A DNA stretch of 64,000 nt from Mytilus edulis. Lineage: Eukaryota. Made by a program: the position numbers and the translations under genes. The notes beneath the pieces are model-generated. The model worked only from the letters and a program-made list of their open reading frames with translations, was not told the origin of the DNA and made no database searches. This document shows positions 7,763 through 57,934 of this stretch, one piece after another. The stretch spans positions 70,578,935 through 70,642,934 of the forward strand of contig NC_092347.1 of the NCBI RefSeq assembly GCF_963676685.1, read 5' to 3'. Numbering within the stretch: the stretch's first letter is position 1; every line of letters starts with the position of its first letter.

Positions 7763-8479
7763 ATGGAGAAGCCATCTTCTGTGACAACATCAGGAAGAAG
7801 TAGGCTTGACCAAACTTCTTCAAACATTGGCAGAAATACTACATCTTCAGCGTTACACAATACATTACTTGGACCAACAAAGTCAAGTTTTTCATTGTCA
7901 GGAAGACCAGGATTGACATCAAATTTGACCAGCAGTTTGACCACATCATCCAATTTGTCCAGTAGGCTTGGTCTGTCATCAGGTTTAAGTAGTAGACTTG
8001 GACCATCCTCAAATTTAACAAGCAGTCTTCTGACAAAGCCTGACCAATCAAAACTTAGCTCATTAAGAAGTGGTGATACTAGATCTGAGCAAACTTCCTC
8101 CATGTTTAAGGAAAATTTACAATCTAATTTACTGAAGTCATCTTCACCTCTTGTCACGATAAAAATAGAACCAGTCACGTCCTTTAGTTCTAGCAGTTAC
8201 TCAACTCAAAGTACATTATCAAGGCAATTGAGCTCAGATAAAAAGGAGACAACCAAAAGAAAGAGTAATGATCGGGCTGCAATCAAATCAAGAAAGAAGA
8301 TGGTGAATAGTGATGGGAAAGTTACTACAATTACTAGATATGAAGTCAAACCACCACAGTATAAATTAGAAATAGATATTAAAGACAAAGGAATAGATAT
8401 ACCAGACTTTGTATCGCCAGCCCAGGATCCAAGTTTGAAACCTATTTCTAAACCATTGCATGATGTGAATGGGATAAAG
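7763..8479 (+). CDS. TEP1: TEP1-like exon 1: putative start MEKPSS then an S/T-rich low-complexity N-terminus. Donor GT is at 8480, phase 0.
   Basis: Long ORF in frame with ORF 7682-8539. ATG at 7763 has A at -3. Donor GTATTA. Splices in phase to the TROVE exons. A possible upstream acceptor at 7731-7733 means the true start could lie in a 5' exon. Confidence 0.55.
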
Positions 8480-8927
8480 GTATTAATTTCTTCACAATAT
8501 CTGGTGTTGAAATCAGACATATTTTGGCATTTGCCATAAGGGATCATTCAAATTATCATCCACTGGCCCTTTTTTTAAATGTTTAACATGTTTAAGGATT
8601 CTACACACGTCAGGTTGAGTTGGTTGATACTGGCTTTCATCTTTCTTAACATCTATGACAGACAATTTTAAAGTTGCAAACTTGCAACTCAATCACTTAA
8701 GTATGGTTGTTTCAATGAAATGAATCCTGTTAAAGTTTTTAATTCATTACATTTGCCTGAAAAATGAACTGTTCATTCAGCAAATTGGTTTTGTAAAAAA
8801 ATTTGCTATAAACACAACTATAAATTGAAAACAAAAATATAAGTAATTCTATTATTCTTAAGCTTGGGTTTTTTATGTTACGAAAAAAGTCATTGCTCAA
8901 CATGCATGTTTAATTTTATTATTTAAG

Positions 8928-9062
8928 CTTGGTTTCATCAATGCTGTTAGTGGATCACTTATTTGCCAACCAGATTTTAGAAATTCAGTAGACAATACTA
9001 GAATAGCACTATTAAACATGGCAAAGAAGTTGGTTGTTTATGATCCAGAGTTTGTACTGAAG
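8928..9062 (+). CDS. TEP1: TEP1-like exon 2 (start of TROVE domain, LGFINAVSGSLICQPDF...VYDPEFVLK)
   Basis: Acceptor AG at 8926-8927, donor GTAAGT at 9063. Phase 0 on both sides. Confidence 0.7.
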
Positions 9063-9325
9063 GTAAGTTCATATTTGATATTTTTTATCCCGCACAGAGC
9101 CTCAATGGGGGATATTGCTGTAAGGCATTGATTGTGCTTAGTCCATCTGTCTGTCGAGTACGCTTTTTTTGATAATTTGTTAAAAAAACCAACAGAATTT
9201 TAATGGTGGTTTATGATGATACAAATTTGTAAATCTTGAAAGAATGTTTAGATGAAAACATCTTTTTTTAGCCAAAACTGTTGCTTTAATTTATTTGATT
9301 ATTTTTATTTGTACATTTGTTGTAG

Positions 9326-9487
9326 GTTGCACTTTATACCAGAAAGCAACTTAACATAAGAACAACAGCAAACTTTCTGTTAGCCATGGCAGCTAATATT
9401 GATTTGTGCAGACCATTCTTAAAGAAATACTACTGTGCCTCTATAAGTTTACCATCAGACTGGATAGAAGTAGCTGAAATATATCAG
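9326..9487 (+). CDS. TEP1: TEP1-like exon 3 (TROVE: VALYTRKQLNIRTTANFLLAMAANIDLCRPF...)
   Basis: Acceptor TTGTAG, donor GTTAGT. Strong resemblance to the TROVE domain of TEP1/Ro60. Confidence 0.8.
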
Positions 9488-9714
9488 GTTAGTTCTGGTA
9501 TGGTTACCAAAGAGAGATAATTTAGTTTGTGACTGTAGGGTAATTGTCATGATAGAAAAATTGTGGATGTTATGCCCAAAAAAACTTTGCCTATTGGTCA
9601 TACACCTTCTTTGTCCCACCTGAATTTGCCACTGTATTCTTAATTTTAATTAAGAATTAGAAGAAAGGTTTTCGAAAAGAAAAGATATCAATTAAAGAAA
9701 AGATTTATTATAAC

Positions 9715-10045
9715 AATAAGAATGGTATAATTGCCAATGAGACAACTCTCCACAAGATAGAAGATGACACAAAAATTAACAACTATGCATGAAATAAAAT
9801 TGAGAATGGAATGGTGAATGTGTCGAAGAGACAACAACCTGACTAAAGAGCAAAAAAACAGGTGAAGGCCACCAATGGTTCTTCAAAAGAGGGACGAAAG
9901 ATACCAAAGGGACAGTCAAACTCATAAATCTAAAACAAACTGACAACGCCATGGCTAAAAATAAAAAAGACAAACAGAAAAACAATAGTACACACGACAC
10001 AACATAGAAAACTAAAGAATAAACAACACGAACCCCAACACAGCC
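9715..10045 (+). repeat. Longest copy (~330 bp) of a composite SINE-like interspersed repeat. Its modules are ATTGCCAATGAGACAACTCTCCACAAGA / ATTGAGAATGGAATGGTGAATGTGTCGAAGAGACAACAACC / GACAAACAGAAAAACAATAGTACAC...CATAGAAAACTAAAGA.
   Basis: Fragments of this one element recur in both orientations: 16635-16735(-), 27040-27125(-), 28715-28790(-), 28990-29100(+), 36690-36780(-), 38210-38330(+), 41235-41410(+), 44640-44760(+), 46180-46240(+). Confidence 0.6.
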
Positions 10046-55316: not shown

Positions 55317-55562
55317 GGTGGCCGAGTGGTCTAAGTTGTTACTACTGTAATCACTAGCCAGTCAACACTGAGTTTGAATCTCGCTTTTCCTGGTGCACTC
55401 GACTCCAATCTTAATTAACTAGGATTGTCAGTTTTCTTATAAAAGGTTTGTGGTTTTCTCCAGGCACTCCACAAAAAAAAACTGACCGCCACGAAATAGC
55501 CTAAATGCAGTGCTTAAAAGTGCCGTTAAAACACCAAAAAAATCAAATCAAATCAATCAAGT
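55317..55562 (+). mobile_element. tRNA-derived SINE. The head has pol III A box (TGGCCGAGTGG) and B-box-like (GAGTTTGAATCTCG) sequences. The tail is AAATCAAATCAAATCAATCAA.
   Basis: tRNA-like 5' region GGGGCCTCGGTGGCCGAGTGGTCTAAG, then a unique body, then a short simple-repeat tail. Lies in intron 51. Confidence 0.6.
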
Positions 55563-56167
55563 ATTGTTGTGTAAGCTCACAAGGAATTTTTGTTGTTGTA
55601 AATCATGAATGAGATTTACCCATTTTTCCTGCTTATTCAACAACTTTATTTTCTGCAAAGATTTTTGGAAAATATGATAATATTAACCTGGTATAGTTAT
55701 GTTCAGTTGATTTTAAATTAAATATAGTCCTTTCTATACATGTATCAAATTTTACCAAAAAAGTACTGTAAAATTAGGATCATGCTGAAATAGCATTGTA
55801 TTGTATTTTTTATACCCCCGCCTTAGCTGAGGGGACATTAAGTTTTACTGTTCAATAGGTATGCCGTTTACAAATAGATTTTTTTTTCATTTCTGTTCTC
55901 TGACTTTAGTTTGCCTCACCAACATGTTATGAAACTAATACACAATGCCTTTTACATGTACTACAAAACTCAGATAAAATACAAATTTTGGAAGTGTCAG
56001 CTTTACAGTTCTTGAGTAATGTCCCTATATAACATTATATGCAATCAAGGGCATCAGCTGTGTCCCATGGACACATTCATCATTTATTTTTATATGGTAT
56101 TAATTTATAGGTATATTGAAAACCTGATTATAGAACATACTGTATATCATTCTTGCTGTTCTTTCAG

Positions 56168-56338
56168 AAATGCAACATAAAAGTTATTACCAGGATTTCA
56201 ATTCCAAACAGAGTTGACACAGATGTTTACATGCACAAAAAGCAACCAGTTTGGGTACACAGCATGGCTGTTGATGGTAAAGATCAGATAATTGGAGACT
56301 CTAAAGGGCAGATAACCAACGCTGAATCTACAACAAGG
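56168..56338 (+). CDS. TEP1: TEP1-like exon 52 (KCNIKVITRISIPNRVDTDVYMHKKQPVWVHSMAVDGKDQIIGDSKGQITNAESTTR)
   Basis: In frame with ORF 56153-56392. Acceptor CTTTCAG, donor GTAGGT. Confidence 0.75.
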
Positions 56339-57350
56339 GTAGGTATCAAAATTGAAAACAATATTCATTGCTCAGCACAAGGATTTTCCTAGTTTCCAGA
56401 CAAAACTTGTGTTTGTGTATTGGTCTCTCTGAAATTGTACTGCAAGGTTCCATACTACAAAGGAAAGGCTGGGATCCAGTGTGGGGGTAATTGCTCCAAG
56501 GGGGGGTTCAAAAAGTTTAGGGGTTCTTTTTTTTTAAGGGGCACAGTATTGAGCAATAGATTTGTAAGATCTTGACATTTGTTATGTGTCAGAAACCTAT
56601 ATTATGCAAAAATTTGATAACAATCCAAATTCAGACAGTATCAAGCTTGAATTTTGTGTCCAAATTTGCTCCAACTGTTCAGGGTTCAACCTCTGCTGTT
56701 GTATCTGGCTGTGCTCAGCGAAGCATTTTATTTTTAATATATAACCTAAGGTAGGGGTTTGACCAGGATTTTGTGGTTCAATTGACATGCAAATGTAGTT
56801 CTGTAAAACCAAATCTTTTTATCAAAAAAAATTATTTCCCATTCAGGGAAGATCCATGTTTTACATATTTACAACGATTCATATTTGTGTTTTTAATTCA
56901 ATTAGTTAGTTGACACTTCGTACTAGCCAGACATGTTGTTTTAGTAACACATTTCCTTGCAGGCTTAGTATTTTATTACTAGCAAAGTTTGAAATGGATA
57001 GGATTGACATGGTCATATATAACAGCTTTTATGATTGGATATAACTTTCCTACCATTAGATCTCAAGGAGTACTGGACTTTGGAAGGGATCCTTAAGATT
57101 GACTCCATATATCAGCTGTTATGACTCTCCAATCAAATTTGAATGTCAACATATCCAGAGTAGGGCCTTGTTCTACCAGTAATCTAGAGACCTTACTCTT
57201 CATTAGTAGTTACTGTTTACATTGAACTTAGTCAGAACTCACCTTCCATTTGAACTTGGCCACTGTTAAAGGGTATCATTGATATTCAGCTGAGGTTCTT
57301 TTCATTTCTTCTTCTTTTTTTTCATTATTTAATTTTGTTGACATTTCTAG

Positions 57351-57452
57351 GTACATGGTGGTGCAGTGATGGCAGTGGATATGACTGATGATCTTATTTT
57401 CACTGCTTCTCAAGATAGAACAGTCAAAGTGTGGAGTAAAGATATGAAACAG
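57351..57452 (+). CDS. TEP1: TEP1-like exon 53 (VHGGAVMAVDMTDDLIFTASQDRTVKVWSKDMKQ)
   Basis: Matches human HSGSVTALHVLPELLVTATKDRDVKLWERPSMQ. Acceptor TTTCTAG, donor GTAATT. Confidence 0.85.
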
Positions 57453-57793
57453 GTAATTTTATAATTAACATTTACTAATTGAAGTAAATTTTCTAATGAA
57501 AATATTTTGTTAATACTTTTCTGTATTTTACTGATAAAATGTACTCTTTTTTGTAGTTAACCTTTACAAACAGTCTTGAAATTCATACATTTTAAGACAT
57601 AAATAACCTCCATGAAATTTTATGAAACTTGGAAAGAAGCTTATTCAAGATAGTATTTTTTTCTTATTAGAACATGCTTGTCTTTACACTGGAGTCTTAC
57701 TAGACAACCTGTTATTATCAATTTCTATCCCAACTGAATATAAACTGTACTTGTTTGTATTTGTTAATAACTGATTGCATGATTCTGTTATAG

Positions 57794-57934
57794 GTTGGTT
57801 TATTCTTCTGTCCAGCACCAGTAACAACAATGACAATTGTGAAAGTTTTACGCAATCCATGCTCAGTAGTCTCCCTTGCCTGTGGTGATGAATTGGGTAA
57901 CATTCATTACTTGACCTGGAGTGGAGGCAAATGA
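57794..57934 (+). CDS. TEP1: TEP1-like terminal exon 54 (VGLFFCPAPVTTMTIVKVLRNPCSVVSLACGDELGNIHYLTWSGGK, then TGA)
   Basis: Matches the human C-terminus LLGLFRCEGSVSCLEPW...AVGDVQGNVYFLNWE. Stop TGA at 57932-57934. Acceptor TGTTATAG. Confidence 0.85.
   Translation, partial: VGLFFCPAPVTTMTIVKVLRNPCSVVSLACGDELGNIHYLTWSGGK

Follow-up and report, generated by a model that had tools for sequence, protein, structure and literature searches.

A 64,000-nucleotide window of the Mytilus edulis genome very probably holds a single intact orthologue of TEP1

The question raised by the stretch of Mytilus edulis DNA analysed here (NCBI RefSeq assembly GCF_963676685.1, contig NC_092347.1, positions 70,578,935 to 70,642,934 of the forward strand; 64,000 nucleotides, hereafter the window) is whether the coding segments scattered over some 50 kb of it belong to one intact gene, which gene that is, and where its protein begins. 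We conclude with high confidence that one intact gene coding for a protein occupies 6730-57934 of the + strand, and that it is orthologous to vertebrate TEP1 (telomerase protein component 1, a minor vault protein). Throughout, positions are those of the window, the gene and all of its exons are on the + strand, and exon and residue numbers follow a model of 55 coding exons and residues 1-2728.

The gene was rebuilt from scratch with our own protein-to-genome spliced aligner (BLOSUM62, affine gaps, GT-AG introns in all three phases, splice-site matrices), taking as references five homologues, namely P0121 and four mollusc TEP1 proteins (P0122, P0123, P0125 of Solemya and P0142 of Saccostrea); additional spliced alignments were made to P0127 and P0138. 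The use of tblastn matches as score bonuses had pushed exons into introns and was replaced by this aligner. Counted from the ATG at 7763 the rebuilt model has 54 exons, a coding sequence of 8043 nt and 2680 codons, with its sole stop codon at the very end (57932-57934), and these figures are identical to those of the initial annotation. With an upstream exon at 6730-6844 there are 55 coding exons and 2728 amino acids (aa), that is 48 further residues. The splice phases join consistently into a single open reading frame (ORF), as had been claimed: in the 55-exon model every one of the 54 introns has GT-AG ends, position +3 of the donor is A in 50 of the 54, and phases 0, 1 and 2 occur 28, 9 and 17 times, respectively. 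The median exon is 134 nt long (range 64-746) and the median intron 555 nt (range 205-6707); G+C is 39.9% in exons versus 29.9% in introns of a window which is AT-rich overall (approximately 30% G+C). Stop trinucleotides make up 6.9% of the intron sequence, and the chance of 2680 open codons is about 1e-84.

The spliced alignment of P0121 returned 42 consecutive exons (exons 14-55, 19066-57934) in which 37 of 41 junctions are gap-free within 5 residues; P0121 and the window protein are 75% identical across 1849 residues, with no insertion or deletion of more than 3 residues. The boundaries of exons 3-17 are identical in the spliced alignments of P0122, P0123, P0125, P0142, P0127 and P0138. Overlapping homologues bridge every junction, the 6.7-kb intron 15 included, which bears out the description of the locus as one gene, and outside the model the + strand resembles the homologues in one place alone, an incomplete copy of exon 35. 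We also wrote a gene finder that chains exons without homology hints, from codon usage and splice-site matrices, and searched the protein collection with its draft. Under a weak intron penalty this hint-free finder predicted too many exons (103), and at a penalty of -8 it returned 51 exons, without exons 9, 10, 16, 30 and 31. Its in-frame exon at 41723-41821 was rejected as false, being contradicted by the transcript-derived protein P0121, and two of its acceptors (29409 and 43650, the weaker choices) as well as its over-extended donor of exon 44 (46520) are contradicted by the P0121 alignment. Also rejected was a segment directly upstream of exon 16 (27019-27230), whose weak protein similarity made it resemble a decayed copy of exon 15; with a stop inside and no similarity at the DNA level, it was taken to be a chance extension of the alignment.

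The identity of the gene follows the initial proposal of TEP1. The best match overall was P0121 (78% identity, 1872 aa), and the best named matches were all "telomerase protein component 1", from Plakobranchus, Elysia, Lingula, Branchiostoma, sharks, teleosts and primates, at E-values from 0 to 1e-200. Each top match that bears a name is called telomerase protein component 1 or TEP1, or else is a TROVE protein of TEP1 architecture, and nothing else was of comparable strength. With the draft as query, identities were 48% for Plakobranchus and Elysia, 53% for Solemya, 52% for Lingula and 47% for Branchiostoma; no protein at or near 100% identity to the window TEP1 was found in the searched collection.

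Domain searches returned the parts of TEP1 in their known order. The TROVE domain (PF05731), whose presence had been put forward as a check, was detected at E 1.7e-106 and 357.5 bits (cutoff 23); low-complexity inserts divide the match into two parts, which reach position 442 of 442 in the profile. The TROVE ring covers approximately residues 298-786 and is interrupted by two inserts rich in arginine-glycine (RG/RGG), in exon 6 (GRGGLFGRGGMIGRGGRGRGRG...) and in exon 11 (RGRGRGRGRGRGRGRGGGG). RGG boxes are RNA-binding motifs. RG runs stand at corresponding places in the Plakobranchus, Elysia and Solemya proteins, and none was noticed in Pan paniscus TEP1, where no systematic check was made. 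After the ring come a domain like von Willebrand factor A (vWA), DUF5920 (PF19334, residues 884-990, 38.0 bits versus a cutoff of 27), and DUF4062 (59.7 bits versus 24.7; Pfam residues 1020-1113, domain approximately 1020-1237), the latter region matching the structure of the human TEP1 TIR-like domain (PDB 11gz_A, "Telomerase protein component 1") at E 5e-62. A P-loop NTPase occupies residues 1252-1444; of the nucleotide-binding models, NPHP3_N (25.3 versus 24.8 bits) and AAA_22 (27.0 versus 27) pass, and both the Walker A motif GKPGTGKS (1285-1292) and a Walker B of the form hhhhDGLD are present. The sequence thus places this NTPase in the STAND type of the TEP1/NWD kind, the Pfam NACHT threshold itself not being reached; of the predicted NACHT domain (PF05729), the related P-loop STAND models stood and the NACHT model did not. 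Further on are an HTH_NWD1 winged helix (residues 1508-1623, 34.2 versus 27 bits), an APAF1_C-like helical domain (residues 1655-1758, 37.6 versus 22.8 bits) and WD40 propellers of about 940 residues (WD40, 338.8 bits), including Beta-prop_TEP1_2nd (PF25047, 265.4 bits versus 89) and Beta-prop_TEP1_C (PF25048, 168.5 bits versus 32, profile positions 1-73 of 73). The last of these ends 4 residues before the stop, so that the WD40 array does run down to the C-terminus as described. The expected TEP1 N-terminal 30-residue repeat (PF05386) gave no Pfam match at E<=1. Because this repeat is recorded only for mammalian entries among the protein-collection matches, it is on the sequence comparison a marker of mammalian TEP1 and not of the orthologue group.

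Seven conserved peptides had been quoted in support of TEP1, and all seven are found on the + strand in the order given (14030-33274): AGKRMKL at 14030-14050, KLPFMAMLRNL at 14751-14783, ISSTFRDMHGERD at 28009-28047, DLRWGVTEEET at 28120-28152, ILGERYGY at 28507-28530, GKPGTGKS at 30898-30921 and ESPFNNQ at 33254-33274. Pan paniscus TEP1 (P0140) has four of them letter for letter, with their order unchanged (AGKRMKL, KLPFMAMLRNL, ISSTFRDMHGERD and ESPFNNQ).

The DUF4062 domain of TEP1 has recently been described as a TIR-like NADase (10.64898/2026.05.01.722283; 10.64898/2026.09.04.749371; 10.64898/2026.09.21.753143), with activity shown for the human, mouse, zebrafish, sponge and Dictyostelium proteins (10.64898/2026.09.21.753143). 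The activity needs E1008 (10.64898/2026.05.01.722283; 10.64898/2026.09.21.753143), is abolished by mutation of F902, R914, R942, C959 or R976 (10.64898/2026.09.21.753143), and increases in specific terms with protein concentration (10.64898/2026.05.01.722283). Residue roles were taken from 10.64898/2026.09.21.753143 and 10.64898/2026.05.01.722283, and the residues were mapped onto the window protein through the Pan sequence at a numbering offset of -9, at which all ten residue identities fit the papers. Nine of the ten named residues are identical: human F902, S905, R908, R914, R942 and W943 correspond to F1022, S1025, R1028, R1034, R1062 and W1063, and human C959, R976 and the catalytic E1008 to C1079, R1096 and E1128. 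The tenth, human R954, is K1074 here.

These features suggest that the NADase is active and is linked to a TROVE/vWA module that binds RNA and to a STAND engine of oligomerisation. The TROVE domain of TEP1 binds vault RNA, and TEP1-null mice lose vault RNA from their vaults (review PMC7916137). From published mammalian TEP1 we infer the RNA partner, the vault residence, the enzymatic activity and its regulation in the mussel: the TROVE/vWA module would bind a small structured non-coding RNA (vault RNA and, in mammals, also telomerase RNA) and tether it inside the vault, NADase activity would rise as NACHT-driven oligomerisation lifts the local concentration, and the WD40 propellers may be docking or sensor surfaces. 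An Rfam scan of the whole window returned no family at threshold, vault RNA included, and a tRNA scan of the whole window returned nothing.

Several observations weigh against the reading of 6730-57934 as one intact TEP1 gene, or against parts of it. All junctions rest on cross-species protein or transcript evidence together with the splice consensus, and the junction of exons 51 and 52 falls in a poorly conserved stretch (2 of 15 residues identical). PF05729 NACHT scores 22.3 bits, below its cutoff of 26.7, though profile positions 2-161 of 167 are covered. No vault RNA, MVP or PARP4 gene lies within the window and, with the Rfam scan empty, a vault association is not supportable from the window sequence. 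Finally, the support for the 5' exon at 6730-6844 is modest, consisting of a short motif and a BLASTP E-value of 0.019, and this exon lies inside a duplicated block of 99.4% identity.

The gene had been called complete, which stands for the 54 exons proposed and not for the 5' end, where one short coding exon is probably missing. This exon 1 (6730-6844, residues 1-39, MSSTDRNKLL...SLMSKWSLKTELTSQT) starts at ATG 6730, has an in-frame TAG two codons upstream of that ATG, and ends in the strong donor CTG|gtatgt; its peptide is MSSTDRNKLLMGDNKSMLSASSSLMSKWSLKTELTSQT. The hint-free finder joined it unaided and independently to the strong acceptor at 7734 (tttttcag|G), 29 nt upstream of ATG 7763, and the join is in frame and without a stop. 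Aligned to the window with splicing, Solemya P0125 and Saccostrea P0142 also take up this exon and its donor. The peptide contains SLMSKWSL, and among 120 homologues the motif S-L-[LM]-S-K-W-S-L was found, as SLLSKWSL, only in two bivalve TEP1s, within residues 8-20 of each and aligned to exon 1; a [DE/R]N[KR]LL-like motif typical of TEP1 N-termini is also present. We therefore consider that 6730-6844 is probably coding, giving a protein of 2728 aa, and that 7763 is probably an internal methionine, since the exon splices in frame to the acceptor at 7734. The alternative, that translation starts at ATG 7763, that 6730-6844 is non-coding (untranslated or unrelated) and that the protein has 2680 aa, is less probable and yet deserves a hearing: ATG 7763 has a good start context (A at -3, G at +4), the upstream exon belongs to a recently duplicated 1.26-kb block, its BLASTP match is weak (E 0.019 to residues 1-15 of P0142, with no significant N-terminal match to Solemya P0125), and in such a low-complexity region chance motif matches are easier. 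The unaided choice of the hint-free finder, the strength of both splice sites with their in-frame join, and the two N-terminal motifs stand against it, and on balance we regard a start at 7763 as unlikely.

The block in question is a direct duplication of 1257 bp and 99.4% identity (3093-4342 and 5976-7232, copies 2889 bp apart), and the 1.6 kb between its copies gave no Pfam match. It could be a recent duplication of the promoter and first exon, or an assembly artefact. Its distal copy (3093-4342) contains a second copy of the putative exon 1 (3841-3955, + strand, 115 of 115 positions identical), which could be an alternative first coding exon or, again, an artefact of assembly. Directly before ATG 6730 (window 6700-6730) there is also an acceptor-like site (ttttctgtttcag|AAATAGAAAATG), which on sequence suggests a further untranslated 5' exon upstream.

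A bolder proposal concerns function. The two RG/RGG-box inserts in the TROVE ring and the fully intact NADase catalytic set make it possible to suppose that lophotrochozoan TEP1 is functionally unlike the mammalian protein and would be an RNA-gated, NAD+-depleting STAND sensor of innate-immune-like character, rather than a passive tether of vault RNA. Taken jointly with a duplicated promoter/first-exon block that would give two alternative transcription starts, we regard this as improbable.

Less probable still is that reading through has merged two neighbouring genes, one with TROVE/vWA ("p80-like") and a separate one of the NWD type with DUF4062, NACHT and WD40. Many database entries are indeed split in this way (the Saccostrea "telomerase component p80-like" entry has 940 aa and TROVE only), P0121 begins inside the vWA region, and intron 15 is 6.7 kb long with a complete long interspersed nuclear element (LINE) in it. 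The split entries are however marked partial or come from short contigs, and P0122, P0123, P0125, P0128 and P0153 each run from TROVE to DUF4062 and NACHT in a single protein. Moreover, intron 15 lies inside the DUF5920/vWA domain and is bridged with exact boundaries by P0121, P0122, P0123, P0125 and P0142, the phase is continuous, and no in-frame stop or candidate start lies between the halves, so that we give a fusion of two genes very little credence.

In the comparison of the window coding sequence with L001, the contig that encodes P0121, the nonsynonymous distance (dN) was 0.175 versus a proportion of synonymous differences (pS) of 0.75 (saturated synonymous sites); this low dN against saturated synonymous change points to strong purifying selection and speaks against a pseudogene. 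That the locus is a pseudogene or a dead paralogue, decaying or without function, a thought prompted by its intronic repeat insertions and the partial duplication of exon 35, is highly improbable given the 2728 open codons (chance about 1e-84), the canonical splice sites throughout, this substitution pattern, the intact catalytic and Walker motifs, and the confinement of the repeats to introns with the exons undisrupted.

Of the relatives of the gene, the closest is P0121, an uninterrupted ORF of 5619 nt on the 5671-nt Logan contig L001 (SRR30826392_18582, run SRR30826392), which is transcript-like because it is free of introns. It is collinear with exons 14-55 to the C-terminus in one ORF at 75% aa identity; it comes from a different species, as the saturated synonymous sites indicate, and is without the 5' third of the gene. 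Positions 1-42 of L001 hold a stop codon and 13 codons unlike exon 13 directly before the equivalent of exon 14, probably a retained intron or pre-mRNA sequence, and the first "M" of the database protein is a GTG-encoded valine in the contig. Among named proteins identity is highest to the bivalves Solemya and Saccostrea (TROVE 70-78%, vWA-like region 50-60%), followed by sea slugs (TROVE 60-73%) and then by Lingula and Branchiostoma. This ranking makes a bivalve or a close relative of the bivalves the probable source. The TEP1s of Solemya velum, Saccostrea cucullata, Plakobranchus ocellatus and Elysia marginata have the RG-rich inserts in common with the window protein, and the two bivalve proteins also share the N-terminal SLLSKWSL; these four named mollusc entries are partial or truncated (940-1865 aa), whereas the window model is full length.

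Vertebrate TEP1 has the same domain order (TROVE, vWA, the TIR-like NADase DUF4062, a P-loop NTPase of the STAND type, WD40 propellers), and the Pan paniscus protein is 36% identical across 1287 aligned residues, with several motif strings identical. The window protein differs from vertebrate TEP1 in its two RG/RGG-rich inserts inside TROVE and in K for R954, and the N-terminal repeats of mammalian TEP1 (PF05386) are replaced by an S/L-rich low-complexity N-terminus. Human TEP1, with about 2627 aa and about 55 exons, is close in size to the window model of 2728 aa and 54-55 exons. In Ro60 (TROVE2) and Tetrahymena p80, too, a vWA-like domain comes after a TROVE ring and small structured RNAs are bound, but the NADase, NTPase and WD40 parts are lacking; PDB proteins with a TROVE domain (9l5y and 9kop) matched weakly, at E 4e-5. 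Conversely, NWD1/NWD2-type proteins and bacterial DUF4062 defence proteins (Swarozyc, Avs-NIR) have the same NADase effector ahead of a STAND NTPase and are without the TROVE/vWA RNA-binding module that defines TEP1. The peptide of exons 18-19, used as a query, matched nothing but short pieces of DUF4062; many came from bacterial proteins, at 45-55% identity.

In the exon-by-exon model, exon 1 is followed by exon 2 (7734-8479, residues 39-287), an S/L/T-rich low-complexity N-terminal region containing ATG 7763; its donor at 8479 is used by P0122, P0123, P0125 and P0142 and its acceptor at 7734 by P0125 and the hint-free model. TROVE starts in exon 3 (8928-9062, residues 288-332), on which P0122, P0123, P0125, P0142 and P0127 agree, and all homologues support exons 4 (9326-9487, residues 333-386), 5 (10492-10588, residues 387-419) and 7 (12945-13078, residues 522-566) of the same domain. 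Exon 6 (11918-12225, residues 419-521) inserts into TROVE a low-complexity stretch that is rich in K and RGG and has acidic S/D/E sequence; its outer boundaries come from P0122, P0123, P0125 and P0142, and the internal splits made by the aligner are length artefacts of the low-complexity run. TROVE continues in exon 8 (13966-14123, residues 566-619, with AGKRMKL; mollusc spliced alignments), exon 9 (14743-14852, residues 619-655, with KLPFMAMLRNL; spliced alignments, missed by the hint-free model at the strict penalty) and exon 10 (15624-15714, residues 656-686; spliced alignments). The second RG-repeat insert (RGRGRGRGRGRG) forms exon 11 (16011-16212, residues 686-753; P0122, P0123, P0125, P0142). 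Exon 12 (17003-17183, residues 753-813; mollusc spliced alignments), a segment not in the P0123 protein, holds the end of TROVE and the start of the vWA-like region, which extends over exon 13 (18263-18409, residues 814-862; mollusc spliced alignments), exon 14 (19066-19152, residues 863-891; P0121 and mollusc alignments) and, as DUF5920, exon 15 (20384-20523, residues 892-938) and exon 16 (27231-27302, residues 938-962), the last two on either side of the 6707-nt intron 15 with its antisense LINE and with their junction bridged by P0121, P0122, P0123, P0125 and P0142. Exon 17 (27613-27771, residues 962-1015; P0121 and mollusc alignments) is a linker.

P0121 supports each of exons 18 to 55. 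Exon 18 (27987-28163, residues 1015-1074; also Pfam and PDB) carries F1022, S1025, R1028, R1034, R1062 and W1063 of the DUF4062 TIR-like NADase, and exon 19 (28455-28697, residues 1074-1155; also PDB) carries C1079, R1096 and the catalytic E1128, the C-terminal part and end of the domain being in exons 20 (29535-29648, residues 1155-1193) and 21 (30151-30271, residues 1193-1233), both likewise supported by PDB. The P-loop NTPase takes up exon 22 (30745-30930, residues 1234-1295, with Walker A GKPGTGKS; also Pfam), exon 23 (31136-31311, residues 1296-1354), exon 24 (32134-32281, residues 1354-1403, with the Walker B-like VVIFMDGLD) and exon 25 (33098-33274, residues 1404-1462, with ESPFNNQ), and is followed by exon 26 (33527-33619, residues 1463-1493). 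The HTH_NWD1 winged helix lies in exons 27 (34168-34300, residues 1494-1538) and 28 (34761-34938, residues 1538-1597), both also supported by Pfam; then come exon 29 (35324-35430, residues 1597-1633), the APAF1_C-like helical domain in exons 30 (35687-35775, residues 1633-1662; also Pfam), 31 (37021-37135, residues 1663-1701) and 32 (38035-38140, residues 1701-1736), and exon 33 (38657-38825, residues 1736-1792). The first WD40 blade is in exon 34 (39222-39317, residues 1793-1824; also Pfam), and WD40 sequence continues through exons 35 (40369-40493, residues 1825-1866), 36 (41024-41173, residues 1866-1916), 37 (41571-41676, residues 1916-1951), 38 (42518-42637, residues 1952-1991), 39 (43070-43168, residues 1992-2024) and 40 (43716-43863, residues 2025-2074). 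The second TEP1 propeller occupies exons 41 (44332-44435, residues 2074-2108) and 42 (45127-45284, residues 2109-2161), again with Pfam support. The series goes on with exons 43 (45799-45904, residues 2161-2196), 44 (46374-46490, residues 2197-2235, donor ATA|gtaagt), 45 (48900-49007, residues 2236-2271), 46 (49537-49693, residues 2272-2324), 47 (50493-50641, residues 2324-2373), 48 (51204-51415, residues 2374-2444), 49 (51848-51911, residues 2444-2465; at 64 nt the shortest), 50 (52213-52331, residues 2466-2505), 51 (53130-53264, residues 2505-2550, with the weakest conservation near the exon 52 junction), 52 (55123-55246, residues 2550-2591) and 53 (56168-56338, residues 2592-2648). The C-terminal TEP1 propeller is in exon 54 (57351-57452, residues 2649-2682; also Pfam), and the terminal exon 55 (57794-57934, residues 2683-2728, stop TGA at 57932-57934) is supported also by the Beta-prop_TEP1_C profile.

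A 122-bp tandem duplication (40233-40476) copies the acceptor and approximately the first 90 nt of exon 35. The resulting partial pseudo-exon directly upstream of that exon (40247-40337, ELHTFRGHANAISSVYFVGQSMLCSAGLDN) lacks a proper donor and is not in the transcript of the L001 relative; use of its acceptor with read-through would lead to a frame shift and a stop. Intron 15 owes its length of 6.7 kb to the insertion of an apparently intact non-LTR (long terminal repeat) retrotransposon, antisense to the gene (20882-26481, minus strand). Its ORF1 (24400-26481, 693 aa) is cysteine-rich with a coiled coil, its ORF2 (20882-24433, 1183 aa) encodes an APE-type endonuclease and a reverse transcriptase (RVT_1, E 4.8e-22), and the two overlap by 34 nt. 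Pfam gave no match for ORF1 of this LINE, nor for the ORFs at 4338-4721, 5049-5276, 19203-19598 and 59467-59763. A satellite-like repeat of 169 bp is present at 87-94% identity at 19564-20234, 32524-32856 and 58785-58950, with four tandem copies in intron 14, two in intron 24 and at least one in the 3' flank, and is preceded at 19500-19560 and at about 58696-58809 by a GTCC-rich 20-nt microsatellite; we presume that it resembles a miniature inverted-repeat transposable element or satellite element of bivalve genomes. Intron 7 contains a minisatellite (13320-13703) in which a 49-bp unit is repeated 7.8 times with 95% matching. Two inverted repeat pairs of about 160-190 bp, 1610-1787/2207-2392 (86%) and 26980-27136/38212-38368 (84%), are presumably copies of small interspersed elements.

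As to what the gene means for the family, the initial annotation held that a full invertebrate TEP1 model would be useful for the evolution of vault and telomerase ribonucleoproteins, and this stands in part. Homologues of TEP1 in the sea urchin genome were reported in 2005 (PMC550661), and the protein-collection matches show TEP1 annotated in many invertebrates. It is an ordinary conserved gene of a family already documented in organisms from Dictyostelium and sponges to mammals, and the locus therefore opens no new question. The model does have some comparative value as a full-length, homology-checked lophotrochozoan TEP1, the named mollusc entries in the searched collection all being partial. 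Its practical value is small, but it would be of use for comparisons of vault components and, because the key catalytic residues are conserved, for comparisons of the newly described TEP1 TIR-like NADase.

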